A stretch of 64,000 bases of DNA from Candidatus Shapirobacteria bacterium (lineage in GTDB: Bacteria > Patescibacteriota > Microgenomatia > UBA12405), in assembly GCA_041658125.1 (NCBI GenBank), contig JBBAAS010000003.1:10830-74829 (forward strand), in the 5' to 3' direction. The translations under genes were made by a program, and so were the position numbers. Shown here piece by piece: positions 6,267 through 62,785 of the stretch. Numbering within the stretch: the first letter of the stretch is position 1; every line of letters starts with the position of its first letter. Below the pieces are notes generated by a model that was given only the letters and a program-made list of their open reading frames with translations, searched no databases and was not told where the DNA came from.

Positions 6267-6327
6267 TGACACCGATAATTTCGGTTTTCATTTTCATTTT
6301 TTCCCGATTGTATCGGGATTCGTACTA

Positions 6328-7796: not shown

Positions 7797-7870
7797 TGAG
7801 GATTTGTCCCGATCGAAAGATTGGGACCATGAATCGAACTCTTCTGGTACTGACAATCTGACTTCAAACA

Positions 7871-9394: not shown

Positions 9395-11146
9395 GTGTCC
9401 AAATCCCTCCGGGTCATCTTGCTCTCCTTATTCTTTCTTTTTATATTCCTCCCATGCCTGCCCCCGGGGGGTCAAGGGGAGGTGTCCCGGTTATTGGGAC
9501 GGAGGGGTTTTGTCTTTGCCAAAACCATCGACGAAGAAATCGCCGACGTCGTCAAACAGATCAGTGATCTTGAAAAGGCTATGGCTCCCCTTAAAACCGA
9601 GTCCAAAGATCTTCAAAGTAAAATCACTCTGGCCAAAATACAAATTGCCTCCACCGAAAAACAGATCGTCAATCTCGGCCAACTTTTGATCGACAAAGAA
9701 GCTGATCTTGAAGTTCAAAAAATTCTTTTGGGCGAACGTGTCCGTCGCTACTATATCAATAGTAAAAAATTTGATCCTTATTTAGTCTTTTTTTCCAACA
9801 GTCAAAATTCCAGCCTTATTCAGGAATATTCCTGGTATCAATCGATCATCGCCCGCGACCGCAACACCATTTCCCAATATGTTACCGATATTACTAATTT
9901 AAATCTCAACAAAACCAAGCTTGAAGTCGAAAAAGTTAAGCTGGCCGCTCTCAAGAAAAATTTTGAAAATCGTTTTGGTTTTCTGGCTACCGAAATCAAA
10001 AAAGCCGAAAATTATAAAAATATTCTTTCCGCCAAACAGCAGTCTCTTATTGCCGAAAAAACCGCCATGTTCAACACTTCCGTCGGTGACGTTTCCACTT
10101 CTGACGATCCCGCCTCCCGTGCCGATTACAACCCCGGTTTCTCTCCCGCCTTTGCCGCTTTCTCTTTTGGCGCACCTCACCGCAAAGGCATGTCCCAATT
10201 TGGCGCTTTTGGCCGCTCCAAAGCCGGTCAGAATTACGAAACTATTCTTCGTGCTTATTACGGCGATATTAAAATTGAAAAAATTAATACCGATGGTTCG
10301 ATCAAAACCACTATCGGTAGTTTGCCTTTTGAAAGCAATTATCTAGTCGGTATTGCCGAAATGCCGGCCGGTTGGGGCGATCAGGGCGGTTACGAAGCGC
10401 TCAAAGCCCAGGCTATTGCCGCCCGCACTTACGCTCTTAACTCTACCGGCAATCTTTCCGGTACTATTTGTGTTACCGAAGCCTGTCAGGTTTATAAAAA
10501 ATCCCGCTTTGAATCACCCGGTCGGTGGAAACAGGCCGTCGAGGATACCCGCGGCATGGTTATCAAAAGTAATAAAACCGGCAATATTTTTTCCACTATG
10601 TATGCCTCCACTGCCGGTGGTGCTACTTATGGCTATTCTTCCGCCGATCACTCTACTCCCCAGCTTTGGGACACCACCTGCGGCAATCAGGGTTGCTGGC
10701 CCAATGACTCCTATGAAAAACAGGCTGGTTCGTCTTGGTATTACAAAGGTTGGTACAAAACCCGTAGCAATGCCGCCTACGGTCGTTCTCACCCGTGGCT
10801 CACCAACGATGAGTTTTCCGACATTATCAACGCTGTTTTATATTTTTCCAATAGTAACGACTCTTCCCATCTTTCCCAAATTCAAAATTGTATCGGTTCC
10901 TGTGACTCCAATGCCTGGTCCCGCGACGAGCTTCGTCGGCAGGTAGGAGACAAAGGTGGTCCGGTCTCTTCCGTCAATTCGATCTCCGTCGATTATTCCA
11001 CCGGCGGTTATACTCAAAAAGTCCGCGTCTCCACCGACAAAGGCGATTTTAGTTTTGATGGCGGTGCCTTCAAAGACATCTTCACCCTTCGTTCTCCCGG
11101 CGCGATTACCCTCAAATCAAGTTTATTTAACATAGAAAAAAAATAA
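9395..11146 (+). CDS. SpoIID/LytB-domain protein with an N-terminal signal peptide and coiled-coil
   Basis: EALKAQAIAARTYAL is the SpoIID/LytB signature, and the N-terminal half is coiled-coil-like. An in-frame GC-rich repeat encodes PCLPPGGQGEVSR. Confidence 0.65.
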   Translation: MSKSLRVILLSLFFLFIFLPCLPPGGQGEVSRLLGRRGFVFAKTIDEEIADVVKQISDLEKAMAPLKTESKDLQSKITLAKIQIASTEKQIVNLGQLLIDKEADLEVQKILLGERVRRYYINSKKFDPYLVFFSNSQNSSLIQEYSWYQSIIARDRNTISQYVTDITNLNLNKTKLEVEKVKLAALKKNFENRFGFLATEIKKAENYKNILSAKQQSLIAEKTAMFNTSVGDVSTSDDPASRADYNPGFSPAFAAFSFGAPHRKGMSQFGAFGRSKAGQNYETILRAYYGDIKIEKINTDGSIKTTIGSLPFESNYLVGIAEMPAGWGDQGGYEALKAQAIAARTYALNSTGNLSGTICVTEACQVYKKSRFESPGRWKQAVEDTRGMVIKSNKTGNIFSTMYASTAGGATYGYSSADHSTPQLWDTTCGNQGCWPNDSYEKQAGSSWYYKGWYKTRSNAAYGRSHPWLTNDEFSDIINAVLYFSNSNDSSHLSQIQNCIGSCDSNAWSRDELRRQVGDKGGPVSSVNSISVDYSTGGYTQKVRVSTDKGDFSFDGGAFKDIFTLRSPGAITLKSSLFNIEKK

Positions 11147-11653: not shown

Positions 11654-12090
11654 TGAAAATTTTATTAAAAAATTTAATACGGTCTTCGTTTATTTGTTTT
11701 CTAATTGCCGCCATTATTGAATTATTTTGGCAGTATTTACTTAATCAAGAAACCAAAAACGGAGGTGAAATCAGTATTTTTTCCAGGTTTCTAATTCCTG
11801 GTTTTTTTCTAGCTTATTGGCTTTTTTTCTGGCCTCTAATCCAAACTTTCTTGATGATCCGTTTCTACGGTTTTAAAAGTTTAGTTATCCGTTTATTTAC
11901 CTATATTCTTTTGTCGGTATCGATGCCTATGGGTTGGGCTGGTTTTTTCGGAATTTTCAAATTTTTTACCGGCGAGTCTAGCACGAATATCACTCTTGCC
12001 TCTGAGTTTGGCATGTATTTGTCCATTTTATTCACTCAGTTCGCTCTCTTTTTTTTGTTTGTCAAAGATAGTCATATCGAAAAAAAGTGA
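11653..12090 (+). CDS. hypothetical integral membrane protein
   Basis: Four predicted TM helices; no family recognised. Confidence 0.4.
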   Translation: MKILLKNLIRSSFICFLIAAIIELFWQYLLNQETKNGGEISIFSRFLIPGFFLAYWLFFWPLIQTFLMIRFYGFKSLVIRLFTYILLSVSMPMGWAGFFGIFKFFTGESSTNITLASEFGMYLSILFTQFALFFLFVKDSHIEKK

Positions 12091-12644
12091 TCCTTATTTA
12101 TGCCTTTTCCAATCCTTGGGGTACCAACATTTCCCGCCGTGTCCTCCTCGAACTTCAAAAACAATTAAGTCTCCCTTTCCTCAAAGGGAGAAGCCCCGAT
12201 GAGACTTTAGTCGACATCGGGAAGAGGGATTTTGCCCTAATTCACGGTCACCCCCGCCCATTCTTCCAAACTCATATTGAACACAAAATTTACTCAATTA
12301 TCATCGGCCTTGGTGATGGCTCCAAATTTATCTCCAAAATCAAAATCGAAACCCGCGCCAAAAATGTCTATTTAGACAAAGAAATTTATCCCTTTTCTCC
12401 GATATTTCTCGATCTTAACCTTCCCGTTGTCGACAACTTTGATTCGGATTATTTCCAAATCGGCTCCAATATGGGTACCTACAACTGCAACTACATGGCC
12501 TATCAAACCCAGCTTCACCTCAATCAAAAAAGTCCGCAAACTAAGCATTTATTTCTCCATCTTCCCCAAAAATCCAACGCTACCGATCTAGCCTCTCGAA
12601 TTCTTTGCCTTTTTCAAGACAATCAAGTATTGAATAAACCGTAA
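12087..12644 (+). CDS. hypothetical protein carrying an in-frame repeat copy
   Basis: GTG start overlaps the previous stop. Contains a short palindromic repeat that encodes QLSLPFLKGRSP. Confidence 0.4.
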   Translation: MILIYAFSNPWGTNISRRVLLELQKQLSLPFLKGRSPDETLVDIGKRDFALIHGHPRPFFQTHIEHKIYSIIIGLGDGSKFISKIKIETRAKNVYLDKEIYPFSPIFLDLNLPVVDNFDSDYFQIGSNMGTYNCNYMAYQTQLHLNQKSPQTKHLFLHLPQKSNATDLASRILCLFQDNQVLNKP

Positions 12645-29876: not shown

Positions 29877-29910
29877 AAACTCATAATAACATACCTCCTC
29901 CCAAGCTTAG

Positions 29911-29980
29911 CCCACTTCGTGCCTGCCCTGAGTTTATCAAAAGGGGAACGCTCCCCCAAATTGGATAGGTTTTAGAACTT
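29911..29980 (+). repeat. family-2 repeat R1
   Basis: GCCTGCCCTGAGTTTATCAAAAGGGGAACGCTCCCCCAAATTGGATAGGTTTTAGAACT. Confidence 0.7.
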
Positions 29981-30719: not shown

Positions 30720-30786
30720 CAAATCACTGCTACTTAATCATAGTATATAAACATATATTGCGTATATATAGGATATATTTGAGATG

Positions 30787-30857
30787 CTCGCCTCGCGCCT
30801 GCCCTGAGTTTATCAAAAACGGACAGGCTTGCCTGCCGGCAGGCGGGTTTTATAACT
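30787..30857 (+). repeat. family-2 repeat R2 (variant with a GCCTGCCGGCAGGC palindrome)
   Basis: GCCTGCCCTGAGTTTATCAAAAACGGACAGGCTTGCCTGCCGGCAGGCGGGTTTTATAACT. Confidence 0.7.
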
Positions 30858-31933: not shown

Positions 31934-31985
31934 TCAGGGCTCGAAGAATGGAACGATCCCTCAAACTGGACAGGTTTTAAAACTG
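31934..31985 (+). repeat. family-2 repeat R4 (first module inverted: ACTCAGGGC)
   Basis: actcagggctcgaagaatGGAACGATCCCTCAAACTGGACAGGTTTTAAAACT. Confidence 0.65.
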
Positions 31986-32809: not shown

Positions 32810-32885
32810 AAACACTCCCAAACTGGACAGGCATGCCCTGAGTTTGTCGAATGGGCTTGCCTGCCTGCAGGCGGGTTTTAGAACT
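32810..32885 (+). repeat. family-2 repeat R5 (variant with a GCCTGCAGGC palindrome)
   Basis: cccaaactggacaggcaTGCCCTGAGTTTGTCGAAtgggctTGCCTGCCTGCAGGCGGGTTTTAGAACT. Confidence 0.7.
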
Positions 32886-34425: not shown

Positions 34426-34493
34426 GCTCGCTTGGTGCCTGCCCTGAGTTTGTCGAAGTGGAACGATCCCCCAAAACGGACAGGTTTTAGAAC
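34426..34493 (+). repeat. family-2 repeat R7
   Basis: GCCTGCCCTGAGTTTGTCGAAGTGGAACGATCCCCCAAAACGGACAGGTTTTAGAACT. Confidence 0.7.
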
Positions 34494-34630
34494 TAATACC
34501 CGAACCCTAAAAAAGCGAAAAATTGTTTAAAGTGTTAAAGTAAAGATATGAAGAGACAATCAGGTACAGTAAGTGTCGTATCGGGATTCTTTATTATTGT
34601 GCAACTGGCTGAAAATCTTAATTTCTTAAT

Positions 34631-44407: not shown

Positions 44408-46176
44408 TGCACTTTACCTGTCGGACCTTTATCGGCAAACATAGCCCTCAAAGTTGGTCCCAATATTGGGAAAAGGAGGATTCTCTTTTTGGCCTTATCA
44501 ATCTCACTTCCGACGATCCGGCTTCCGATCTTGTCGCTCTTGGTCATTCCCTGATTGATAAAATTAACCAGGCTTTTTCTGTTTCTACTCTTTCGGAAAT
44601 TCTTTCTCAAATTACCTCCGAATATCAAGCTTCCGCCGTCAAAATCAATCTTTCTTTGGTTACCATTTCTGACAATCAGCTTACTTTACTGAATCTTGGC
44701 CAAAATCAGGCTTATCTTCGCCGCGGTCTTCGGATTGCCCCGCTTCTTTCTGCCTCACCCGCTGTTCCCATTACCGGCCAGCTGGCCGCAAACGACCAAA
44801 TTTTTCTTACCACGGAACCTTTTTTTGACGGTTTTGGTTTCGACCGGATCAAGCAGTTTCTTTCCCTTGGCAGTCTTCAGGACATCGAAGAAAATTTTCT
44901 TACCTATCTCAATACATTGGATGTTCAGGACAATCTTGCCGCCGTTTTGATCCAAGCCGAATCCGATGACACCGGTAGTACTTTATTTTCTCCTCTTCCG
45001 GTTTCCGCCCCGCCCCCTCCCGGGGGGCCAAAAGTTTCTCTTTTTTCCCAAATTTCCAAAGCTTTTCCCCGCCGGCAGTCGCTTTATGTTTCTTCCCAGG
45101 ACTTAAACCAAACCAAGCGCCACAAACAGCAAAACGTCATTTTGGCCCTTATTCTTCTTCTGGCTCTTGGCGTCAGTTCCTTTTTTGGTTATCAAAAAAA
45201 TCGTGCCTCCGCTATCGAATCCAAGTACCAAACCATAAAATCGGCTCTTCAGGAAAAATTGACAAATGCCCAAACTGTTAAAAATCTGGATCTTGAATCT
45301 GCCCAAAATTTGGCCAAAGAAGCCCAAGTTCTGCTCAAAGACCTCTCGGCTTTGAAAGTTCATCCTGATGAAGTTTCTGGTTTTGAGTCCCAAATCTCCA
45401 CTTTTCTTTCTCAAACCGGCTCCAAAAGTGACTTTCTCCCCGAAGTTTTTTATGATACCGGTATGATAAAAAATGGTCCGAAATTTAACCATATATTTTA
45501 TTCTAATAAAAATATATTTCTCTTTGACCCGGGGGATGGTCGCCTCACCAGCCTTGATGAAAACCGGAAAATCGACACTATTTCCTCCGCCGACGGACTA
45601 AAAAACCTCCAATTTATCAGTCTCAACAATGGTAAATTTTATGGCGTTTTGGATCAAAAAGTTTTTCTCATTACCAAAACCTCTTTGGATCCGGTTATCG
45701 AGCTTGCTGTTGATCCGGTTAGTCTTCAGTCATGGAATCAGGCCTTTTATCTTTTAAGCTCCGATGCTATTACCAAATTTGCTCCCAATTCTACCGGCTT
45801 TTCCAAAGGCACCCCTTGGCTTCAGGACGGCCAGTCGCTCCCCCAAAACCCCTCTTCTTTGGCCATTAACGGTCAGCTTTGGGTTCTTTCGGCAAATGGT
45901 CAAATTACTGCCTACGATCGCGGTCAAAAGGCCGTTTTTAAACCAAGCCAGCTCGTTGATACCACTGGCGCCAAGAATTTGGTTACTACTGAAAATAGCC
46001 AAATTTTGGCCTTTAACGATTCCCAAAATCAGGTTTATGTCTATCAAAAAAATGGCACCATGCTCGCCAAGTACAATTTCAATACCCTTTCTGTTCTAAG
46101 TCTGGCTCTGAACGTTGACAAAAACCTCCTCTACGTCCTTTGCTCCGACCAAAAGATCTACAAAATTTCTCTCTAG
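44407..46176 (+). CDS. hypothetical protein, carries an in-frame repeat fragment
   Basis: 589 aa with a central TM helix and a Ser/Asn-rich beta-rich C-terminus. ccgccccgccccctcccggggggcc at 45006-45035 encodes SAPPPPGGP. Confidence 0.45.
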   Translation: MHFTCRTFIGKHSPQSWSQYWEKEDSLFGLINLTSDDPASDLVALGHSLIDKINQAFSVSTLSEILSQITSEYQASAVKINLSLVTISDNQLTLLNLGQNQAYLRRGLRIAPLLSASPAVPITGQLAANDQIFLTTEPFFDGFGFDRIKQFLSLGSLQDIEENFLTYLNTLDVQDNLAAVLIQAESDDTGSTLFSPLPVSAPPPPGGPKVSLFSQISKAFPRRQSLYVSSQDLNQTKRHKQQNVILALILLLALGVSSFFGYQKNRASAIESKYQTIKSALQEKLTNAQTVKNLDLESAQNLAKEAQVLLKDLSALKVHPDEVSGFESQISTFLSQTGSKSDFLPEVFYDTGMIKNGPKFNHIFYSNKNIFLFDPGDGRLTSLDENRKIDTISSADGLKNLQFISLNNGKFYGVLDQKVFLITKTSLDPVIELAVDPVSLQSWNQAFYLLSSDAITKFAPNSTGFSKGTPWLQDGQSLPQNPSSLAINGQLWVLSANGQITAYDRGQKAVFKPSQLVDTTGAKNLVTTENSQILAFNDSQNQVYVYQKNGTMLAKYNFNTLSVLSLALNVDKNLLYVLCSDQKIYKISL

Positions 46177-46247
46177 TCTCCCTTTCTTCAAAGGGAGAAG
46201 CGGCAACTTGTCCCGATCGAAGTATCGGGAAGCCGAGAGGGATTTTA
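46177..46247 (+). repeat. family-1 palindromic repeat (hairpin CTCCCTTTcttcAAAGGGAG plus CCCGATcgaagtATCGGG)
   Basis: gtctccctttcttcaaagggagaagcggcaacttgtcccgatcgaagtatcgggaag...gggatttt, upstream of smpB. Confidence 0.6.
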
Positions 46248-46679: not shown

Positions 46680-46689
46680 AATCTCGATT

Positions 46690-46757
46690 CCCCTGCCCTG
46701 CTTGCCCCTGGGGGGCTTGCCCCTTTGGGGTCAAGGGAAGGGGTAGGGGAAGGGTTT
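46690..46757 (+). repeat. family-1 palindromic repeat (type B)
   Basis: cccctgccctgcttgcccctggggggcttgcccctttggggtcaagggaaggggtaggggaagggttt. Confidence 0.65.
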
Positions 46758-48381: not shown

Positions 48382-48456
48382 GTAGGGAACGGTTTAAAAT
48401 CGTTCCCCGGGTAGGGGCGTATTGCAATACGCCCCTACAAAAAGGTAGGGTGGGTT
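48382..48456 (+). repeat. double-hairpin GC-rich repeat variant (GGGAACGgtttaaaatCGTTCCC plus GTAGGGGCGTATTGCAATACGCCCCTAC)
   Basis: Two perfect palindromes followed by GGTAGGGTGGGTTT. It shares GGAACG and GTTTAAAA with family 2 and GTAGGG..GGGTTT with family 1. Confidence 0.55.
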
Positions 48457-48468
48457 TAATATTAATCT

Positions 48469-49134: not shown

Positions 49135-49160
49135 AAGTCAAAACCCTCTTTTTATTAAAG

Positions 49161-49212
49161 CCTCCCCTGCCCTGTCAGGGGAAGGGGTAGGGGAAGGGTT
49201 TGGATTTAGACG
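49161..49212 (+). repeat. family-1 palindromic repeat (type B, short)
   Basis: cctcccctgccctgtcaggggaaggggtaggggaagggtttggattt. Confidence 0.6.
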
Positions 49213-50620: not shown

Positions 50621-50662
50621 GCTCCTCCTTTCGTCAAAGGAGGAGTTAGAGGTAGATTTTGC
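50621..50662 (+). repeat. family-1 palindromic repeat (type A)
   Basis: gCTCCTCCTTTCGTCAAAGGAGGAGttagaggtagattttg. Confidence 0.65.
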
Positions 50663-52204
50663 TTATTTTAACTGATACTTAACCCTTACCTGTTCAATTC
50701 CGTTTCTCAAGCTTACCATCAATTTTTCCGAGTCAAAACTGTTTTTAATCATCCCGTTAATCGCATCGGCAAAATACTGGCTCATTTCATCATTTATACC
50801 CTTATCATCCCAGGTTCTGGAGCACAGATACCAGCTTTCCGCTTGGTTGGCCACTGTTGCAAACGGCTTCAGTAGTTTATTTTCACTGATCTTAGCCGCC
50901 ATACTTTTTCGCGGATATATTTCCCCAAAGGCTCTTACTTGCGAGGCTGTCAAATACATTTTTTCCAGTCCCTCTTTTGACGCCAAATATTCCAAAAATT
51001 GCCAGGCTTCTTTTTGATTTTTGCTCTTTGAGTTGACTCCTTCTACCCAGTAACTCGCCCAATGAATATTAGTCAAAGAACCTTCTCCTATCGGTTCGTT
51101 TCTATTTTGGCTTTCCAGTGTTTGTAACTGTGGTACCGGGATAATTTCATATTTCAAATTCGGATACCGCTCATTAAGCTCAAATGCCCGCCACGATGGC
51201 GCAAAATAAAAGGCCAATTTTCCACTGCCAAAAGCCGAAGTTGAATTCGGCATGGTTTCATCCCACACCCTGTCCGCCCCTGTTCCAAATTGGCTATAAA
51301 ACTTCAACGCGTCCAATAGTGACCCATTATTAGTTTGATCATTTTTAAAAAAATCAGTCCCATTTTGTTTGCCCAAAACTCCGACAATATCACTGAAGTG
51401 ATCGACATTATCAGTCAGCCCCATGGCCACTCCGGCCACTTTTATTTTTCCCGTTTCGTCTTTTACCGTTAGTTTTTTTGCCGCCTCTTTTAAGTCCCAC
51501 CACGATTTTGGTAGCGTCACCCCTGCCGCCGTAATCAGGTCTTTATTGTAATAAAGGCTTAAACCGTCGTACATCAATGGTATGGCCACAAAGTTGCCTC
51601 CTGACTTTAGGTCATTTTTATACACATCAAAAAAATCCGTTTCCAGTTCCAATGTTTGGGCTGTTTGGGCCGGTACCGGCGCTAAATATTCCAAAAAGTT
51701 TGGCAACCACGTCTGATGAATTCTATAAATATCCGGGCCTTCGTCCTTTGCCAACCTCGATAAAAGTATTGTTCGGTAATTATCCTTGTCCTGTTTCGTG
51801 TAATTAATTTTAATATTTGGATTTTTGGCCTCAAAGTCGGCAATTATTCCATCCAGCACATTTTTTTCCTCCCACATTCCGGAGTAATTAATAGTGATAA
51901 TTTCCTGTTTTCCCGTAATCTTTGGGAGTATTACCTTGAAAATTAAAAACAAAATCACCCCTACTCCTAAAACTATCCCCAGCGGAATCAATATTTTACT
52001 GAAGTTAAAAACTTTTTTTGGTTCTGCCGCCGGTACCGTTTCTGGTTTATCTGTCGTAACAGGCTCGCTTGTCCCTGGGGAGGGGTTTGCCCCTGAGGGA
52101 TTTATCCCCGATGAGGGGTTTGGATTTGTATCCGTTTCTTCTTTTTCCACTTCCATCCTAAAATTTCTTGGCGGCAGTGGCGACTTGATTTCGTCTAAAT
52201 TCAC
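50663..52204 (-). CDS. ABC transporter extracellular solute-binding protein (family 1, sugar-type) with an N-terminal TM anchor
   Basis: 513 aa with a Pro/Ser-rich N-terminal linker, a TM segment, then an SBP-like fold. Confidence 0.6.
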   Translation of the reverse strand: MNLDEIKSPLPPRNFRMEVEKEETDTNPNPSSGINPSGANPSPGTSEPVTTDKPETVPAAEPKKVFNFSKILIPLGIVLGVGVILFLIFKVILPKITGKQEIITINYSGMWEEKNVLDGIIADFEAKNPNIKINYTKQDKDNYRTILLSRLAKDEGPDIYRIHQTWLPNFLEYLAPVPAQTAQTLELETDFFDVYKNDLKSGGNFVAIPLMYDGLSLYYNKDLITAAGVTLPKSWWDLKEAAKKLTVKDETGKIKVAGVAMGLTDNVDHFSDIVGVLGKQNGTDFFKNDQTNNGSLLDALKFYSQFGTGADRVWDETMPNSTSAFGSGKLAFYFAPSWRAFELNERYPNLKYEIIPVPQLQTLESQNRNEPIGEGSLTNIHWASYWVEGVNSKSKNQKEAWQFLEYLASKEGLEKMYLTASQVRAFGEIYPRKSMAAKISENKLLKPFATVANQAESWYLCSRTWDDKGINDEMSQYFADAINGMIKNSFDSEKLMVSLRNGIEQVRVKYQLK

Positions 52205-54393: not shown

Positions 54394-55488
54394 TTAATCT
54401 AACTCCCAGCGGGGAAGTCTATCCAGTTTTTCAATCTCTTCCACAAACTCTCCTCTCATTGCCTTGTAATACCCCGCCACTCCGATCATCGCCGCGTTAT
54501 CGGTATTTAGCCATTTTTTCGCCGGCATATAAATCGGCAGTTTCATTTCTTTTGCCAATTTTCTTAATCTTTTTCTCAAAGTCATATTCGCCAGTACTCC
54601 GCCCGAGGCCAGCAATGTTTTTGGTTGATATTTTTCTATCGCCAGTTTAAATTTTCTTGTCAAATGCTCAAAGACCGCCTCCTGAAAACTGGCCGCCAAA
54701 TCAGCCAAATGCTCGTTCACTTTTTCTTTCGGCCAGTCTTTTATTTTGTAATAAAAACTGGTCTTAAGTCCGGAAAAACTAAAATCCATTATTTTTTTAT
54801 CTTGGAGTGGTTTTGGCAATTCTAAAAATTTAGGGTCGCCTTTCATGGCCACTCTTTCAATCACCGGTCCTCCCGGATATCCCAATCCTAATAATTTTGC
54901 CGCCTTATCCAGTGCCTCTCCCGCTGCGTCATCCAGCGTCTCGCCGACCGTTTCATACTCTCCAATCTTTTTTATTATTACTATTTTAGAATGACCACCT
55001 GATACAGTTAGCGCTAGTGCTGGAAAGCCTATTTCCCTACTTGGTAAATTGTTCTTATTCTTTACCCAATTAGATAAAATATGTCCCTCAATATGGTTAA
55101 CAGCAACAAGTCTTTTATTATACTTCTTGGCCAACTCTTTGGCCATGTTTACTCCCACTCCCAGCGCCGGTGCCAACCCCGGTCCCACCGTCACCGCGAT
55201 CACATCTATGTCTCTTATCATTTCTTTTATCTCCCTTGCCCTGCTTGCCCCTGTGGGGTCAAGGGAAAGGGTAGGGTTAGGGTTTTGTTTTTTTGCTCTT
55301 TTCAGCGCTTCCATTATCACCGGTCCGATTCTTTCCTGATGAGCGCGTTTAGCAATATCCGGTACCACTCCGCCCCATTTTTTATGCAGGTCTATCTGTG
55401 ACGAAATCACCGACGACAATACTCTGTCGTCCTCCAGCACCGCCGCACAAGTGTCGTCACAACTGGTTTCTATCGCCAATATTTTCAT
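54394..55488 (-). CDS. tsaD: tRNA N6-adenosine threonylcarbamoyltransferase TsaD (Kae1/Gcp)
   Basis: MKILAIETSCDDTCAAVL and VTVGPGLAPALGVGVNMAKELA, plus a C-terminal metal site. Contains an in-frame repeat encoding KQNPNPTLSLDPTGASRAR. Confidence 0.85.
   Translation of the reverse strand: MKILAIETSCDDTCAAVLEDDRVLSSVISSQIDLHKKWGGVVPDIAKRAHQERIGPVIMEALKRAKKQNPNPTLSLDPTGASRAREIKEMIRDIDVIAVTVGPGLAPALGVGVNMAKELAKKYNKRLVAVNHIEGHILSNWVKNKNNLPSREIGFPALALTVSGGHSKIVIIKKIGEYETVGETLDDAAGEALDKAAKLLGLGYPGGPVIERVAMKGDPKFLELPKPLQDKKIMDFSFSGLKTSFYYKIKDWPKEKVNEHLADLAASFQEAVFEHLTRKFKLAIEKYQPKTLLASGGVLANMTLRKRLRKLAKEMKLPIYMPAKKWLNTDNAAMIGVAGYYKAMRGEFVEEIEKLDRLPRWELD
55230..55287 (+). repeat. family-1 repeat (type B) inserted in-frame in tsaD
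   Basis: tctcccttgccctgcttgcccctgtggggtcaagggaaagggtagggttagggttttg. Confidence 0.7.
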
Positions 55489-55500
55489 TCTCGTATTTTA

Positions 55501-55556
55501 CTCCCCTCCTTTCCTCAAAGGAGGGGTCAGGGGGTAGATTTTGACGGGAAGGGTTT
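55501..55556 (+). repeat. family-1 repeat (type A) in the tsaD/HIT divergent intergenic region
   Basis: CTCCCCTCCTTTCCTCAAAGGAGGGGtcagggggtagattttgacgggaagggttt, followed by TATAAT 7 nt before the HIT ATG. Confidence 0.7.
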
Positions 55557-55568
55557 ATAATTACTCAT

Positions 55569-56048
55569 ATGTCACCTTGTCTTTTTTGCCAAATCGCCGA
55601 CGGTTCCATTCCCAGTTTTAAAATTTGGGAAGACGACCACCATTTTGCTTTTTTGGATATTTTTCCGAATTGCCTTGGTCAAACCGTTGTTATTTCCAAA
55701 AAGCATTTTAGTAGCTATTTTGCCGACCTCCCGAGCCGCAACCTTTCTTCTCTTATCGTTGCCGCCAAAAAAGTTGGGAAAATTCTGGATGCCGCCTTCG
55801 CCGATGTCTCCCGTACCGCTTTGGTTTTTGAAGGCTTTGGTGTCAATCATATTCACGCCAAGCTTTATCCGCTCCATGGCACCGGTGATCTTTTGGAGTT
55901 TCAGGCCATTGAAAAAAATCGTCAAAAAGACGTCCAAAAACAGTTTTTCGACCGCTATCAGGGCTACATCGCTTCCTATTCTTACGACCGCATGTCCGAC
56001 CAAAAGCTTAAGTCTATTGCCGATATGATTATTAATTCCCAAAAATAA
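55569..56048 (+). CDS. HIT-family (histidine triad) hydrolase
   Basis: CLFCQIADGSIPSFKIWEDDHHFAFLDIFPNCLGQTVVISKKHF and NHIHAKL (His-triad region). Confidence 0.7.
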   Translation: MSPCLFCQIADGSIPSFKIWEDDHHFAFLDIFPNCLGQTVVISKKHFSSYFADLPSRNLSSLIVAAKKVGKILDAAFADVSRTALVFEGFGVNHIHAKLYPLHGTGDLLEFQAIEKNRQKDVQKQFFDRYQGYIASYSYDRMSDQKLKSIADMIINSQK

Positions 56049-56217
56049 ATTATTAGTCTATAACTAAACCAATATGAAACCAATTCTTCTCATCCTCATC
56101 GGCATCATTGCCGTTTTGATTTGATTCCCAATTTGGTCAAGTGGCGGCGGTTTTAAAAGTGGTGGTGGGGGATTTGGTGGCGGTTCTTCCGGCGGCGGTG
56201 CCTCCGGCAGTTGGTAG

Positions 56218-57396
56218 CTAGATTTCGTAACTTATCTTTCTTGTCGTCTCATCCACATATTCAAATTTCACCATTACCGTCTTAGCCATTTCTTTTAATT
56301 TTTCCAAATTTTCTTTTCCCATATTTTCCGGCCATTCAATACAAGCAATGGTCTTTGGACTAAATTGCTCCCAAAATTTTATTTCTTTAAATTCAAATTG
56401 GTTTTCAATTCTATACAAATCAAAATGCAAAAATTTATTTATTGCGTAAGTCTCCCTTGCTTGCCCCTGTGGGGCTTGCCCCTTTGGGGTCAAAGGGAGA
56501 TTTAGAGGGATTTCATATTCATTCATCACCACAAACGTTGGGCTGGTTATTCTTTCTCTTATCCCCAAAGCTTTTCCCACCGCTCTGGCAAATACTGTTT
56601 TTCCGCACCCCAAATCCCCAGTCAATAAAAAAATTATTGGTTTAAAGATAAAGTCTCCCTTGCTTGCCCCTGAGGGGCTTGCCCCTGTGGGGTCAAAGGG
56701 AGATTTAGAGGGATTTTGATTGAGGGTTTTTTTTAATATAAACCCCGCCACCTTTCCCGTTTCTTTTTCCGATTTTGATATCAGGCTCTTGGTTCCGCTG
56801 GTTATCAAGTCTCCTCTTCTTAATACTTTCAATTCCGGTTCGGTGGTATCAATTACAGTTGACGGTAAATTCTTCGGCAGTTTGCCCGCATCTACCACCA
56901 TGTCAATCATCTCCGTTTTCTTTTTCGACAATGTTTTCAAAAAACTCCCGATCGAATAATGCGGTGTTTTCCCCGATAAATTAGCCGACGTTGCCGTTAC
57001 CGGTCCGCCAACTGCCAATACTAAATCTTTTATATTTTTATTCTCCGGGATTCTTATCCCGAGTGTTCCGTTTTCTGCCTCTATGCCTTTGGCTACTTTA
57101 TGTTTTCCTTGGCTTATGACGGTAAATGGTCCGGGTAACAAATTTGCATAAACATTTTTTCCATTTTCCGATAGTTTCACATATTCCTCCGCCATATTTT
57201 GGTCTAAAACCGCAATCGATATTGCCTTCCCGTGCCATCTGTTTTTAAACAAAAGTAGTTTCTCTACCGCCGATTGATTAGTCGGATCAACCATCAGTCC
57301 GTACACCGTGTCGCTGGGGAACACCACTAATCCGCCTTCTCTTATTACTTTGGCCGCTAAATCTATTGATTTTTGACTCAATTTTACAATTTTCAT
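56218..57396 (-). CDS. tsaC-tsaE: fused TsaC/Sua5 (YrdC domain) and TsaE (YjeE P-loop) t6A biosynthesis protein
   Basis: N-terminal VVFPSDTVYGL...IRIPEN (YrdC). C-terminal LLTGDLGCGKT, SPTF and HFDLYR (TsaE). Two in-frame repeats encode SKSPFDPTGASPSGASKGD and LNLPLTPKGQAPQGQARE. Confidence 0.7.
   Translation of the reverse strand: MKIVKLSQKSIDLAAKVIREGGLVVFPSDTVYGLMVDPTNQSAVEKLLLFKNRWHGKAISIAVLDQNMAEEYVKLSENGKNVYANLLPGPFTVISQGKHKVAKGIEAENGTLGIRIPENKNIKDLVLAVGGPVTATSANLSGKTPHYSIGSFLKTLSKKKTEMIDMVVDAGKLPKNLPSTVIDTTEPELKVLRRGDLITSGTKSLISKSEKETGKVAGFILKKTLNQNPSKSPFDPTGASPSGASKGDFIFKPIIFLLTGDLGCGKTVFARAVGKALGIRERITSPTFVVMNEYEIPLNLPLTPKGQAPQGQARETYAINKFLHFDLYRIENQFEFKEIKFWEQFSPKTIACIEWPENMGKENLEKLKEMAKTVMVKFEYVDETTRKISYEI
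56450..56514 (+). repeat. family-1 repeat (type B) in-frame in the TsaE part
   Basis: agtctcccttgcttgcccctgtggggcttgcccctttggggtcaaagggagatttagagggatttc. Confidence 0.7.
56652..56718 (+). repeat. family-1 repeat (type B) in-frame at the TsaC-TsaE linker
   Basis: agtctcccttgcttgcccctgaggggcttgcccctgtggggtcaaagggagatttagagggattttg. Confidence 0.7.
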
Positions 57397-57426
57397 TCCC
57401 GCAATTTTATCATTTTGTCTGTTTAT

Positions 57427-57575
57427 GCCCTCCTTTCGTCAAAGGAGGGTGCCCGAAGGGCGGGTGGATTTTGCTTTCATCCCTCCTTTTTCAAGGGAGG
57501 GTAGGGTGGGTTTTGATAAGTCTCCCTTGCCTGTCCGCCTCTGCAGGATCAAAGGGAGATTTAGAGGGATTTCGG
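57427..57575 (+). repeat. three tandem family-1 repeat units (A, A' and B) between tsaC-tsaE and valS
   Basis: gCCCTCCTTTCGTCAAAGGAGGGtgcccgaagggcgggtggattttg; CCCTCCTTTTTCAAGGGAGGGtagggtgggttttg; tctcccttgcctgtccgcctctgcaggatcaaagggagatttagagggatttcg. A TATAAT follows 9 nt before the valS ATG. Confidence 0.7.
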
Positions 57576-57588
57576 TTATAATATTCCC

Positions 57589-59913
57589 ATGGACAAGGCA
57601 TACGAGCCTTCTGGCGAAGAACATATTTACAAGCTTTGGGAAGACTCCGGTATTTTCACTCCCAAAATCGACCCTAAAAAACAGCCTTTCTCTATCATTT
57701 TGCCTCTCCCTAATGCCAACGACCCGATGCACATCGGTCATGCTCTTTTTACCATTCAGGATATTCTGATCCGTTACCACCGCATGCTTGGCGAGTCTAC
57801 TCTTTGGCTTCCCGGCTCCGATCACGCTGGTATTGAAACTCAATACGTTTTTGAAAAAAAACTAGCCAAGGAGGACAAGTCCCGCTTTGATTTTGACCGC
57901 GATACTCTCTACAAAATGATCTGGGATTTTGTCGAAGAAAATCGCGAGCTTAACGTTGCTCAAATGCGCAAGCTTGGTTTTTCTATGGATTGGACCCGCT
58001 ATCACTATAGCCTCGAACCCAAAATTATCGACAATGTTTTGGCTACTTTCAAAAAGCTTTATCACGACGGTCTAATTTATCGGGCTGAAAAAATTGTCAA
58101 TTACTGCACTCACTGCGGCACGGCTTTTTCCAATCTTGAAGTTGATTATGTCGATGAAGTTACTAGCCTCTACTACATGAAATATGGTCCGTTTACTTTG
58201 GCTACCACCCGTCCCGAAACCAAGTTTGGCGACACCGCCGTAGCCGTTAATCCCAAAGACATTCGCTACCAGCAGTATGTTGGCCAGGACATTACTGTCG
58301 ACGGTCTCCTTGGCCCCTTTAAGGTCCGGGTTATTGCCGACGATATGGTTGATATGGAGTTTGGTACCGGTGTCGTCAAAATCACTCCCGCCCACGACCC
58401 CGACGATTTTGAAGCCGGTCTTCGTCACCATTTGCTCATCAAACGCGTTATTGGTTTTGATGGCCGACTCAACGAATTAACCGGTAAATATGCCGGCCTG
58501 ACTGTTGCTCAAGCTCGGATTAAAGTGGTTGAGGATATGAAGGCAAGTGGTATGCTTGTCAAAATCGACGATAATTATAATCATCGCATTGGCCGTTGTT
58601 ACCGTTGTAAACATATTATCGAGCCCATGGTTATGCCCCAGTGGTTTGTCAAAATCGATGCTCTGGCCAAGCCCGCCCTCAAAGCCGCCCGCGATGGCCA
58701 AGTCAAGTTTTTCCCTCTCCGTTTCAAAAAAGAATTTACCGATTGGATGGAAAATATCCGCGACTGGAACATCAGTCGTCAAATTGTTTGGGGCCCCCGC
58801 ATTCCGGCTTGGTATTGTCTTGACTGTCATCCGGGCATCAAGCTCAATTTTTTAACCAAAGACAAAAAAGTCGTTACCGGTCTTTATGTCGATCTTAAGG
58901 ACAAATATTCTTTTGATGAAATCCGTTCCGGTCTTCAGTCCCTAAGCGCTCCTGTCGGCTCTATTTTTTATGTCGACTCGCCCGATTCCTGCCCCAAATG
59001 TCACTCCAAAAATCTTTTGCAGGAAACCGACACTTTCGACACCTGGTTTCTTAGCGGCCAGTGGCCCTTGTCTACTCTTGGTTACAATGTTGCCGATCCT
59101 ACCAAAAGCTCTCCCGATTTCGCCTATTTTTACCCCACTTCCGTCATGGATACTCTTTGGGACATTCTCTTCTTTTGGGTTGCCCGGATGATGATGTTTG
59201 GTCTTTATTTAACCAAAGAAGTTCCGTTTAAAACTATTCACCTTCACGCTCGGGTGGTCGATAAAAACGGTCAGAAAATGAGCAAATCCAAGGCCAATGT
59301 TGTCGATCCGCTCTCCATGACTGCCAAATACGGCACCGACGCTCTTCGTTTTTCCCTTGTTTACGGCATTGCTCCCGCTTCCGATATCGTCGTTTCCGAG
59401 GACAAAATCCGCGCCCACCGCAATTTCGTCAACAAAATCTGGAACGCCGCCCGTTTTATCGAAATGCTTATCGAACGTCAGCAAGAAAAGTCTCCCTTGC
59501 TTGCCCCTGTGGGGTCAAAGGGAGATTTAGAGGGATTTAAGGATCTCAAAGGCAAGGGGGATTTGGATCCCGCCGACTTGGCCATTCTCCAAAAGCTCAA
59601 CTCTCTCATCACCTCTACTACCAAAAACCTCAACACTTTTCATTTCGGTCAGGCTTCCGAAGATTTGTACCAATTCTTCTGGCACGAATTTTGTGATGTT
59701 TATATCGAATCCACCAAAAATAGGCCAGCTCAAAACGAGGGGGGAGTCGATGCTCTTCCCGTTCTTGTCCATATTTTGTTAACCTCTCTTAAGCTTCTTC
59801 ACCCTTTTATTCCCTTTGTTACCGAAACTATTTATCAAAACTTAAAAGCTCAGCTCGGCTGGACCGATCCATTCTTAGCCGCCGCCCCCTGGCCGACTGT
59901 AAATGAAATATAA
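57589..59913 (+). CDS. valS: valyl-tRNA synthetase, short form lacking the C-terminal coiled-coil
   Basis: PNANDPMHIGHA (HIGH), GSDHAGIETQ, and KMSKSKANVVDP (KMSKS). Collinear with ValRS blocks. An in-frame repeat encodes SPLLAPVGSKGDLEGF. Confidence 0.8.
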   Translation: MDKAYEPSGEEHIYKLWEDSGIFTPKIDPKKQPFSIILPLPNANDPMHIGHALFTIQDILIRYHRMLGESTLWLPGSDHAGIETQYVFEKKLAKEDKSRFDFDRDTLYKMIWDFVEENRELNVAQMRKLGFSMDWTRYHYSLEPKIIDNVLATFKKLYHDGLIYRAEKIVNYCTHCGTAFSNLEVDYVDEVTSLYYMKYGPFTLATTRPETKFGDTAVAVNPKDIRYQQYVGQDITVDGLLGPFKVRVIADDMVDMEFGTGVVKITPAHDPDDFEAGLRHHLLIKRVIGFDGRLNELTGKYAGLTVAQARIKVVEDMKASGMLVKIDDNYNHRIGRCYRCKHIIEPMVMPQWFVKIDALAKPALKAARDGQVKFFPLRFKKEFTDWMENIRDWNISRQIVWGPRIPAWYCLDCHPGIKLNFLTKDKKVVTGLYVDLKDKYSFDEIRSGLQSLSAPVGSIFYVDSPDSCPKCHSKNLLQETDTFDTWFLSGQWPLSTLGYNVADPTKSSPDFAYFYPTSVMDTLWDILFFWVARMMMFGLYLTKEVPFKTIHLHARVVDKNGQKMSKSKANVVDPLSMTAKYGTDALRFSLVYGIAPASDIVVSEDKIRAHRNFVNKIWNAARFIEMLIERQQEKSPLLAPVGSKGDLEGFKDLKGKGDLDPADLAILQKLNSLITSTTKNLNTFHFGQASEDLYQFFWHEFCDVYIESTKNRPAQNEGGVDALPVLVHILLTSLKLLHPFIPFVTETIYQNLKAQLGWTDPFLAAAPWPTVNEI
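59489..59538 (+). repeat. family-1 repeat (type B, single inner hairpin) in-frame in valS
   Basis: agtctcccttgcttgcccctgtggggtcaaagggagatttagagggattt. Confidence 0.7.
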
Positions 59914-60271
59914 AAAATTGATTATTGGCTTGTTATTAATCTCTCTTTTTATTAATCTCTATCTTTCTTTTCTTGCTCTTAATCCTATCTCTCAAGCCAA
60001 AATTAAATCCGTTCTTTCGTTGTCTTCCGGCACCCGCTATTTTTACTCGCTTGAGGCTGACCGTTTGGCACACTACCCGGAAACCATTAAAAAAACCCTC
60101 AATTCTCTTATTGTTAAAAGTCCCAAAACCCCCGATGATTGGATTGAAATTACTAAAATTTATTTACAATTAAACAACCCAACCGAAGCTAAAAAGGCTA
60201 TCTTACAGGCTCAAAAACTCGACCTGATCCGCTCCGACATTGAAAAAATCTATTTTAATCTCAATCGCTGA
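59903..60271 (+). CDS. hypothetical TM-anchored protein (TPR-like)
   Basis: 122 aa with an N-terminal TM helix; overlaps the valS stop. Confidence 0.35.
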   Translation: MKYKKLIIGLLLISLFINLYLSFLALNPISQAKIKSVLSLSSGTRYFYSLEADRLAHYPETIKKTLNSLIVKSPKTPDDWIEITKIYLQLNNPTEAKKAILQAQKLDLIRSDIEKIYFNLNR

Positions 60272-60970: not shown

Positions 60971-61074
60971 TTTTATTTTTTTGCCTGCTGGGCCTTTAGC
61001 TTTCGCCTACCTCCCCTCGGCTCTTATAATTTGTGAAGGAATTATACACTATTCTTTCTTTTTTTATATCTTTA

Positions 61075-61114
61075 CCCCTCCTTTCGTCAAAGGAGGGGTA
61101 GGGGTAGATTTTGA
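61075..61114 (+). repeat. family-1 repeat (type A) upstream of trpS
   Basis: CCCCTCCTTTCGTCAAAGGAGGGGtaggggtagattttga. Confidence 0.7.
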
Positions 61115-62149: not shown

Positions 62150-62225
62150 CAGGTGGATTTTGATTTACCCCTGCCCTGTCAAGGGAAGGGGTAGGGGAAG
62201 GGTTTGAAGGGTTGGTGGATTTTTC
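62150..62225 (+). repeat. family-1 repeat (type B) downstream of trpS
   Basis: ggtggattttgatttacccctgccctgtcaagggaaggggtaggggaagggtttgaagggttggtggatttt. Confidence 0.65.
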
Positions 62226-62748: not shown

Positions 62749-62785
62749 CCCTCCTTTTTCAAGGGAGGGATTAAGGGTGGGTTTG
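62749..62785 (+). repeat. family-1 repeat (type A) between two tRNA genes
   Basis: CCCTCCTTTTTCAAGGGAGGGattaagggtgggtttg. Confidence 0.65.

Follow-up and report, generated by a model that had tools for sequence, protein, structure and literature searches.

Strand-polar GC-rich hairpin repeats reside in-frame within essential genes of a Candidatus Shapirobacteria bacterium

How do GC-rich hairpin repeats come to lie, in-frame, within several essential genes of one bacterial genome? The question is raised by a 64,000-nucleotide stretch of contig JBBAAS010000003.1 (assembly GCA_041658125.1) from a Candidatus Shapirobacteria bacterium, the whole of which we refer to as the window, where such repeats are embedded in tsaD, in a tsaC–tsaE fusion gene and in valS. 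A sequence-only reading of this DNA had described five copies of a single element between 55230 and 59538, all within open reading frames (ORFs), and had interpreted them as selfish DNA similar to the Rickettsia palindromic elements (RPEs). The repeat copies are visible on direct reading of 55000–59800, and the family is real: four + strand occurrences of the 25-mer GTCAAAGGGAGATTTAGAGGGATTT (56489, 56692, 57548 and 59514) contrast with none expected from 100 shuffles, and the 5′ arm GTCTCCCTTGCYTG is found at places matching this 25-mer. Copies are indeed in-frame in all three genes. However, only four of the five lie inside ORFs, the fifth (57518–57572) being intergenic and upstream of valS, and the family extends well beyond the range first given, with ∼20 related hairpin elements detected by direct-repeat and hairpin scans between 9.4 and 62.8 kb of the window. 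We think it probable that these elements form a non-autonomous selfish hairpin-repeat superfamily, similar in size to repetitive extragenic palindromic (REP) sequences and similar to RPEs in their in-frame residence, with strand-specific spread and growth within protein loops.

The elements are GC-rich hairpins, with family units of 36–69 nt, and all subtypes are built alike, with a pyrimidine-rich 5′ arm, a (G)TCA loop, a complementary purine-rich 3′ arm and an asymmetric, G-rich tail that ends in TTT. There is a conserved TAG in the 3′ tail, and the 5′ flank consists of AA followed by AT-rich sequence. Three patterns can be distinguished, AAGTCTCCCTT-loop-AAGGGAGA-TTTAGAGGGATTT (type 1), CCCCTGCCCTG-TCA-GGGGAAGGGGTAGGGGAAGGGTTT (type 2) and CCCCTCCTTT-CGTC-AAAGGAGGGG-TAGGGGTAGATTTTG (type 3). 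The idea of a single element type therefore holds for the tsaC–tsaE and valS copies, which carry the TTTAGAGGGATTT tail, but not for the tsaD copy, which belongs to another subfamily with the tail GGGTAGGGTTAGGGTTT. The outer inverted arms that had been proposed do form a stem, although its perfect part in type 1 is 8 bp long (TCTCCCTT/AAGGGAGA). Stems vary between types and yet remain complementary (TCTCCCTT/AAGGGAGA, CCCCTCCTTT/AAAGGAGGGG and CTCCTCCTTT/AAAGGAGGAG), the last pair being a two-sided change in the copy at 50622. Folded as single-stranded DNA, the elements give the expected hairpins, at z-scores of −2 to −5. Their GC content is higher than that of the host genes (51–59% versus 40–46%), but not as dramatically so as had been suggested. 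Six or seven of the ∼20 window copies are inside ORFs and the remainder are intergenic, occupying divergent, convergent and tandem gene spacers as well as the smpB/tmRNA spacer and a tRNA spacer (Table 1).

The genes that harbor the elements are not pseudogenes. The tsaD, tsaC–tsaE and valS translations are uninterrupted and free of frameshifts, with full-length Pfam matches, and all of the insert peptides quoted in the sequence-only reading are present in them; a predicted insert-junction peptide is, for example, ..NQNPSKSPFDPTGASPSGASKGDF... The TsaC–TsaE fusion is conserved in 120 homologues, and the window protein is 100% identical to that of a Candidatus Shapirobacteria metagenome-assembled genome (MAG). 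The nearest species representatives in the genome collection, a Levybacteria MAG among them, share only 50–65% ValRS identity. Three other contigs, assembled separately (two from ENA, one from JGI/NCBI), are 100% identical to the window over 12–18 kb, which excludes mis-assembly. An artefact of repeat assembly or of decayed host genes, for which only the general difficulty of assembling repeats would speak, can thus be given a negligible probability, since the host ORFs are intact with full-length domain matches and inserts of this kind recur in hundreds of independent database proteins.

The copies at 56448 and 56651, both in tsaC–tsaE, match at 64 of 66 DNA positions despite being read in different frames. 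What they share is therefore a property of the DNA and not of the protein, and points, at the level of sequence comparison, to recent copying or gene conversion of DNA. The type-1 and type-2 copies within ORFs are 66, 66, 66, 54 and 51 nt long, every one a multiple of three, whereas the intergenic type-1 copy measures 55 nt. This pattern bears on whether the elements might be removed from mRNA in the manner of introns, leaving the proteins unaffected, a scheme that would suit the abundance of rRNA and tRNA introns in candidate phyla radiation (CPR) genomes noted, for example, in 10.1101/2025.07.03.662931. Removal of this kind would not account for the multiples of three, nor for the exclusive use of stop-free frames with a hydrophilic bias, an argument with some circularity, as open ORFs were the means by which the copies were found. 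In addition, a 36-nt hairpin has no known self-splicing fold, and Rfam 15 at the gathering threshold returns only rRNA, tRNA and tmRNA across the whole window, with only chance-level matches in a permissive scan of 55200–59600. We therefore view intron-like removal as highly improbable.

Comparison with related sequences identified sites at which the inserts are absent. At TsaD site 1 (AKRAH to GPGL), the segment is 29 aa long in 43 of 118 close homologues and has at least nine extra residues in 74, with none of 30–37 aa, a bimodal distribution that fits discrete insertions. This site is empty in 341-aa baseline forms and in the closest relative, P0122 (encoded at locus L204), which is the sister of the window TsaD in a rough tree and co-occurs in the same ENA sample. 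The spacer between tsaD and the HIT gene is 21 nt in L204 compared with 80 nt in the window, indicating that the type-3 copy at 55504 is missing there too. Locus L009 is without the TsaC–TsaE linker insert and has a shorter TsaE loop, both tsaC–tsaE sites are empty in P0022, P0030 and P0065, and the ValRS of loci L001–L004 and of T. thermophilus (1GAX) show a gap at the position of the valS insert. The repeat motifs themselves are absent from L001–L004 and L009. The expectation that the inserts would be lineage-specific, with empty sites in relatives, is thus borne out.

The inserts are also predicted to sit in disordered surface loops or linkers that are compatible with the fold, as had been anticipated. 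In alignment-based AlphaFold (AF2) models, the predicted local distance difference test (pLDDT) score falls below 50 at TsaD residues 69–80 and at TsaC–TsaE residues 229–250 and 299–316, the latter located between two strands. The corresponding TsaE loop (EEYNI to IYHFDLY) has four residues in the H. influenzae structure 1HTW and 25 in the window protein. Alignment of 22 TsaC–TsaE and 20 TsaD orthologues revealed that the same TsaD, TsaE and linker loops carry the peptides of different subfamilies in different lineages, among them NPSKSPFD-KGD, NPNPTLSLD-RAR, SPNPSLTRGG, PPSLEKGGLK and PLTGQG. A second TsaD hot spot, from SGGHTK to GETLDDA (alignment columns ∼190–240), is empty in the window and contains 3–48 extra residues in 30 of 118 relatives, including P0122. 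Judged from these alignments, the orthologous TsaD and TsaE loops are recurrent insertion hot spots across Shapirobacteria.

Some of the shared sites hold elements at different stages of elaboration. P0002 (78% identical) and P0009 (77%; locus L176) have a basic, module-free type-1 element at both or one of the tsaC–tsaE sites, encoding KSPFD/KGDF and IPLNLPLT/RET, whereas the window protein has two extra 5-residue blocks per site (PTGAS-PSGAS and PKGQA-PQGQA). Likewise, the ValRS of L157 (66% identical) contains a basic 36-nt element in the same loop as the window valS copy. The module is a 15-nt GC hairpin, CTTGCCCCTKTGGGG, that sits between CCCTTG and TCA, just 5′ of TCA, and all nine window modules occupy this loop position, in type-1 as well as type-2 elements. 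Outside the window, modules were found only in the element loops of contigs L101, L183 and L204, which belong to the same sample series. On this comparison of shared sites, resident elements seem to have grown in place, in 15-nt frame-preserving steps, within essential genes. Immediately after the valS element, at 59539–59575, the sequence AAGGATCTCAAAGGCAAGGGGGATTTGGATCC (encoding KDLKGKGDLD) resembles a second, degenerate 3′ arm and tail, and the valS loop may therefore hold two stacked insertions.

The orientation of the elements offers the chief clue to how they spread. The asymmetric tail is on the + strand in ∼20 of 20 window elements, whatever the direction of the flanking genes (two-sided binomial p ~2e-6 for 20/20). 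Minus-strand matches to the patterns in the window are hairpin-less chance matches in coding sequence, and there are no bona fide minus-strand copies. At 1–14 kb and 44–64 kb, genes on both strands show a third-codon-position GC skew of −0.3 to −0.6 on the + strand; at 15–42 kb it is +0.1 to +0.4. In the window core (1–14 and 44–64 kb), the + strand, which bears the 16S rRNA gene, is thus C-rich, as it is in some Microgenomates, where near-unidirectional replication has been tentatively proposed as the origin of a chromosome-wide C-rich strand bearing the rRNA genes (PMC7143001). The association extends beyond the window: of 55 copies of the basic 36-nt unit, 48 have a flanking GC skew (1.5 kb each side, read on the element strand) lower than −0.05 and one exceeds +0.05, with a mean of −0.24, and extra type-1 copies on the same contig are co-oriented in 21 cases versus 4. 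Because orientation follows the C-rich strand independently of gene direction, a strand-specific insertion step is suggested. By analogy with the IS200/IS605 insertion sequences (IS), which transpose by a single-strand ‘peel and paste’ mechanism at the replication fork (PMC5027513, PMC6006769), the polarity suggests that this step may be linked to replication.

Complete strand polarity in the window is also what a host-useful polar DNA signal might display, comparable to FtsK-orienting polar sequences (KOPS), Chi sites or uptake sequences, or else a regulatory hairpin, with the in-frame copies as a tolerated side effect. The sequence GGGTAGGG in the type-2 and type-3 tails agrees with the KOPS consensus of E. 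coli, GGGNAGGG; many of the intergenic copies span an entire spacer and contribute stop codons; and uptake sequences likewise lie in-frame with biased frame use. Such a signal would be essential and chromosome-wide, however, whereas the elements are absent from syntenic relatives and from an island at 15–43 kb, and they are clustered (three in 57428–57572) rather than evenly spaced. A regulatory role is difficult to reconcile with an orientation that is independent of gene direction, with the lack of an Rfam match and with the fact that one copy only scores as a terminator, between divergent genes. We consider a polar signal or regulatory hairpin quite improbable, and return to the preferred reading, a selfish hairpin repeat, in what follows.

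The elements are not confined to this genome. At least 120 metagenome stretches contain the 24-nt core, and the commonest unit, AAGTCTCCCTTGTCAAAGGGAGATTTAGAGGGATTT, is 36 nt long and accounts for 55 of the 85 non-redundant copies used for flank profiles. Among 93 non-redundant copies outside the window (one odd group excluded), 22 lie inside ORFs of at least 100 codons. Hosts confirmed by Pfam include MetRS, MiaA, TGT, RNR, a RimK-like ligase, a TrxB-like reductase, GT4 glycosyltransferases and a TraG/VirB4-like ATPase. Use of the open frames of the 36-nt unit is skewed toward hydrophilic readings, with NPSKSPFDKGD in ∼14 copies inside ORFs, IPLNLPLTRET in ∼4, KSPLSKGDLEGF (KSPLSKGD) in ∼4 and VSLVKGRFRGI in none. 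The reverse-strand frame that contains TAA provides the stop codon (..KSL-stop) of ∼9 genes.

Three of the metagenome loci are from Acinetobacter, with HrpA proteins 94–99% identical to A. terrestris-like proteins. In A. pseudolwoffii (GCA_030325985.1; L208, 11464–11500), HrpA contains an in-frame 37-nt variant with the exact 24-mer core, encoding ..NPSKSPFEKGRL.., and a matching peptide is present in A. pecorum and other named strains. Other Acinetobacter HrpA proteins have diverged versions (NPPKSSFTKGG and SSPFKKGG), one has an extra 5-residue block in the loop, and two database proteins are empty. The unit is present in hrpA at loci L124, L127, L195 and L208, which we compared with L207. 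There is a single copy within 24 kb, and the Acinetobacter hrpA copy looks like an old, low-copy insertion.

Taken together, these data can be accommodated by a model in which copies multiply in trans, with the help of an enzyme whose gene lies elsewhere or through a replication or repair pathway of the host. Copying would act on one DNA strand, so that tails would end up on the C-rich chromosome strand regardless of gene direction. Insertion would ignore genes and, in a gene-dense genome, would often strike coding sequence. Selection would then retain the frame-preserving, stop-free copies in surface loops, linkers and termini, together with copies that supply a gene-end stop codon and copies that fill spacers, and this filter would give rise to recurrent hot spots. 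Resident copies would subsequently grow by addition of 15-nt GC hairpin modules in the loop just 5′ of TCA, and the inserts would be translated into disordered loops of 12–22 aa. Mobility in this model is read from comparison between species.

Several observations weigh against this model or limit its reach. No transposase is present among the ∼58 window ORFs in Pfam scans, and Y1 TnpA queries (IS200 and IS608, approximate sequences) gave no significant tblastn match in 2.1 Mb of loci. Neither a target-site duplication nor a target motif emerged from the flank profiles of the 85 non-redundant copies, and insertion polymorphism within the population was not seen, the three other contigs being identical. 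The compared filled and empty sites come from species that are 60–89% identical, at which distance the insertion boundaries are approximate and either gain or precise loss may explain a difference. In Acinetobacter, the difference between filled and empty hrpA alleles amounts to 69 nt, split between two indels, in place of a clean 36 nt. The prediction that relatives would have no ordinary sequence at the insert positions holds where they show gaps, but some of them, the L009 TsaD for example, have in the corresponding loop a segment of comparable length and ordinary appearance; in view of the hot-spot pattern, such segments are best read as older, decayed or different insertions, a caveat that stays with the comparison. 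Four of the six frames of the 36-nt unit are open, which is about the number expected by chance, and in the metagenome set multiples of three are equally common among intergenic and coding copies, so the notion that the elements are built to be coding was rejected. Finally, type-3 tails are parallel to type 1 in the window but mostly antiparallel in other genomes (5 parallel versus 28), and the putative replication coupling of the insertion step is read from GC skew.

The lack of a detectable transposase in the Pfam and tblastn searches and of a target duplication raises the alternative that the elements spread without any such enzyme, by slippage or template switching at hairpins with gene conversion homogenizing the copies, as a by-product of strand-asymmetric replication and repair. 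Consistent with this alternative, the modules are added as 15-nt loop units that each begin with a repeat of the preceding CTTG, the neighboring tsaC–tsaE copies are nearly identical, as gene conversion predicts, and orientation is tied to the compositional strand. Slippage cannot, however, explain how one 36-nt sequence comes to lie at dozens of unrelated loci and in unrelated genomes, including those of Acinetobacter, and the bimodal insert lengths indicate discrete insertions. We therefore regard spread of this kind as unlikely and continue to favor selfish insertion. A bolder version of that reading can be put forward only tentatively: a 36-nt hairpin with neither coding capacity nor a detectable transposase might be a widespread parasite that crosses phyla (Patescibacteria to Acinetobacter), copied by a single-strand, replication-linked route with absolute polarity and routinely colonizing, then enlarging, the loops of essential proteins in 15-nt steps, so that its polarity might serve as an independent marker of the unusual and possibly unidirectional replication of Microgenomates.

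The closest parallel in behavior is with the RPEs. According to PMC10969869 (citing Ogata et al. 2000), RPEs are palindromic repeats of ∼100–150 bp found in intergenic DNA and in-frame in unrelated housekeeping genes, where they preserve the ORFs and encode a conserved peptide of tens of residues. The window elements are similarly multi-copy palindromes, intergenic as well as in-frame in unrelated housekeeping genes at fold-compatible positions with ORFs preserved, in a small, AT-rich, gene-dense host genome. They differ in that the units are only 36 nt (51–69 nt with modules) and encode 12–22 aa, below RPE length, and in that the host belongs to a different phylum (Candidatus Shapirobacteria, not Rickettsiales), with the unit also present in many lineages and in Acinetobacter; this comparison is by description only. 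Strict strand polarity and nested loop modules, both of which characterize the window elements, have to our knowledge not been reported for RPEs. The original proposal of an RPE-like selfish element is thus supported as regards in-frame residence, but as an analogy, since 36–69 nt contrasts with ∼150 bp and the elements are not restricted to a single clade.

In size and shape, the elements are closer to REPs, which together with bacterial interspersed mosaic elements (BIMEs) and the REP doublets known as REPINs are associated with RAYT (Y1 HUH) transposases (PMC3116915, PMC3337134, PMC3333891). Both are GC-rich imperfect palindromes of ∼35 nt with an asymmetric conserved flank, many copies, clusters and subfamilies with co-varying stems. 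REPs are extragenic, however, whereas one fifth to one third of the copies described here are inside ORFs (6–7 of ∼20 in the window and 22 of 93 in the metagenome set), and the 5′ GTAG of REPs is absent, the conserved TAG being in the 3′ tail. No RAYT gene was seen among the ∼58 window ORFs or, with the approximate queries described above, in the 2.1 Mb of loci. REPIN-like inverted type-3/type-1 doublets are frequent in other genomes, whereas window copies are all parallel singlets or tandems. One 155-nt tandem array was found, at L150 5040–5440, where each of three ∼155-nt units comprises an inverted type-3 hairpin, a spacer and a type-1 unit with the tails outward, a REPIN/BIME-like doublet.

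Other systems share individual features. Like IS200/IS605 elements, the repeats are defined by hairpins, have no classical terminal inverted repeats and produce no target duplication, and attachment to the C-rich strand may parallel the tie of IS200/IS605 insertion to one replication strand; in contrast, a single hairpin replaces the separate left-end and right-end hairpins, the targets share no conserved tetranucleotide and TnpA was not found in the sequence searched. A classical MITE, or miniature inverted-repeat transposable element, would create a target-site duplication, which is not seen in 85 copies, and although the hairpin arms could be read as inverted repeats of 8–11 bp, no parent IS was found. 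GC-rich palindromes of organelles, as described in Volvox (PMC2670323) and in the mitochondria of Nematomorpha (PMC6649704), resemble the elements as GC-rich hairpins in AT-rich compact genomes, some coding and translated and some nested, but they are organellar and differ in sequence and size. The GC clusters of yeast mitochondria are likewise GC-rich palindromic clusters of an organelle genome, and we know of no strand polarity linked to chromosome-wide GC disparity for any of the organelle palindromes. Uptake sequences (uptake signal and DNA uptake sequences, USS/DUS) of Pasteurellaceae and Neisseriaceae are short, very abundant, common to related species and often located in genes in preferred frames with tolerated peptides, yet their 9–12-nt cores accumulate by substitution, whereas the elements are added as whole 36-nt hairpins. 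Because the defining features of RPEs (length and taxon) and of REPs (extragenic location, 5′ GTAG and, in the sequence searched, RAYT) are lacking, the elements are analogous to both and members of neither. The best-supported analogy is that they behave as the CPR counterpart of RPEs, with size and shape closer to REPs.

A number of other identities were considered and rejected. The Rfam scans of the window rule out a known RNA family. A terminator consensus scan flags only the type-3 copy at 61067, between divergent genes, and no type-1 copy. Several copies are located just upstream of a TATAAT or extended −10 box, but no plausible −35 is present inside the element on inspection by eye. A weak TnpA match on L152 proved to be a glycosyltransferase, and PARCEL repeats (PMC2996958) are 25-residue tandem repeats that are not comparable. 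The 36-mer has no match in PLSDB or INPHARED, nor the 24-mer in IMG/VR. In agreement with the claim of novelty made initially, full-text literature searches, whose coverage is incomplete, returned no earlier description of such elements, or of the sequence, in CPR genomes.

Table 1. Hairpin elements, their principal host genes and the 16S rRNA gene in the window
Feature	Position	Strand	Remarks
16S rRNA gene	6321–7797	+	
Type-2-like element with module, N-terminal region of SpoIID-domain ORF (9395–11146)	9446–9511	+	ORF start codon uncertain
Type-1 composite, in Peptidase_C15-like ORF (12087–12644)	12167–12232	+	66 nt; in-frame, sense; second hairpin between 3′ arm and tail
Type-1 composite, intergenic, upstream of smpB	46175–46245	+	
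Type-2 element with two modules, intergenic, smpB to tmRNA gene	46689–46757	+	69 nt
Two GC hairpins followed by GGTAGGGTGGGTTT tail, intergenic	48385–48457	+	
Basic type-2 element, convergent-gene spacer	49159–49201	+	
Type-3 element, intergenic	50622–50660	+	compensated stem CTCCTCCTTT/AAAGGAGGAG
Composite G-tail repeats, N-terminal tail of solute-binding protein gene (50663–52204)	52060–52130	+	in-frame, antisense; encode TNPNPSSGINPSGANPSPG
tsaD, host gene	54394–55488	−	364 aa (relatives' baseline 341 aa); Pfam PF00814
Type-2 element with one 15-nt loop module, in tsaD	55232–55285	+	54 nt; in-frame, antisense to tsaD; encodes ..QNPNPTLSLDPTGASRAR..; tail GGGTAGGGTTAGGGTTT
Type-3 element, divergent tsaD/HIT spacer	55504–55543	+	CCCCTCCTTT-CCTC-AAAGGAGGGG + GGTAGATTTTG
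tsaC–tsaE fusion, host gene	56218–57396	−	392 aa; Pfam PF01300 + PF02367 (Sua5/TsaC + TsaE)
Type-1 element with two 15-nt modules, in tsaC–tsaE (TsaE beta-hairpin loop)	56448–56513	+	66 nt; in-frame; encodes IPLNLPLTPKGQAPQGQARET
Type-1 element with two modules, in TsaC–TsaE linker	56651–56716	+	66 nt; in-frame, in a frame unlike that of the 56448 copy; encodes NPSKSPFDPTGASPSGASKGD
Two type-3 elements in tandem, intergenic	57428–57473 and 57481–57515	+	from direct-repeat/hairpin scans
Type-1 element with different loop insert, intergenic	57518–57572	+	55 nt, not divisible by 3; lies 4 nt upstream of the TATAAT (57577–57582) that precedes the valS ATG
valS, host gene	57589–59913	+	774 aa; Pfam PF00133 + PF08264
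Type-1 element with one module, in valS	59488–59538	+	51 nt; in-frame, sense; between catalytic and anticodon-binding domains; encodes KSPLLAPVGSKGDLEGF
Type-3 element, between divergent L25 and class-Ib aaRS genes	61073–61113	+	
Basic type-2 element, intergenic	62163–62205	+	
Type-3-like element, between two tRNA genes	62749–62785	+	

The segment at 15–44 kb, which has the opposite skew, a lower GC content (31–38%) and no G-tail hairpin elements, is probably an acquired island or an inverted block. Its genes encode polysaccharide-synthesis enzymes, a Fic protein, a type IIG (Eco57I/MmeI-like) restriction-modification enzyme, a Bro-N protein and an SNase-like nuclease. A second, unrelated family of intergenic repeats, GCCTGCCCTGAGTTTATCAAAAGGG ... 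GGACAGGTTTTAGAACT, is located entirely within this island (29910–29979, 30786–30845, 31949–31984, 32831–32880 and 34426–34494, all on the + strand), and ..SGQA.. would be the reading of its reverse complement. At a third site in TsaE, P0002 carries an additional in-frame insert, TSSGQAHSTSSGQV, which suggests that the island repeat family may also enter coding sequence in other genomes.

Other repeats were noted around the unit elsewhere. In the FWPV01 contigs (a subset of L086–L193), the 36-nt unit is central to a conventional MITE of ∼160 nt with terminal inverted repeats ATACCGTTTTAAAAAAT... and a TATAAT directly after the unit; there are 27 non-redundant copies of this MITE in AT-rich contigs, and L142, for example, has seven copies in 14.7 kb. 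In higher-GC contigs (L084 and L165), a different GC-rich repeat, of the ..CGCTCGCAATGACAG.. kind, flanks the type-1 unit, and the N-terminal extension of the TsaC–TsaE homologue P0090, MRLLRRFTPRNDV.., resembles a translated repeat of this kind.

With regard to the neighboring genes, the window also contains a tmRNA gene and four tRNA genes. The window ValRS is short and lacks the C-terminal coiled coil of 1GAX-type enzymes. A 122-aa ORF (59903–60271) without a Pfam match overlaps the end of valS by 11 nt and is called as a gene in public assemblies. A TATAAT box is located 6 nt upstream of the valS ATG (57577–57591), and in the sister genome (L204, 2192–2215) the tsaD ATG has a comparable box 7 nt upstream, a spacing that suggests leaderless or near-leaderless transcripts for both genes.

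The phenomenon is confirmed and extends further than the first description, and its strand polarity, apparent growth in place, occurrence across phyla and pattern of hot spots make it notable. If the reading is correct, it extends selfish DNA within protein-coding genes, until now a speciality of Rickettsia, to the candidate phyla radiation, and it does so with a hairpin of REP size, four times smaller than an RPE, that is able to reside in-frame. Insertions of this kind would explain much of the length variation and many of the low-complexity loops in CPR TsaD, TsaE, ValRS, MetRS, MiaA, TGT and RNR, and would provide a dated record of protein loops that were created and then enlarged in 15-nt steps. 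Spurious protein ‘families’ and shifted calls of start and stop sites result from the repeats, which can also mislead homology-based annotation of CPR genomes. The presence of the unit in the HrpA of cultivable Acinetobacter, with filled and empty alleles, offers experimental access. Strand polarity, combined with the G/C disparity of Microgenomates, would link a mobile element to an unsolved question of replication and supply a sequence marker with which to approach it.

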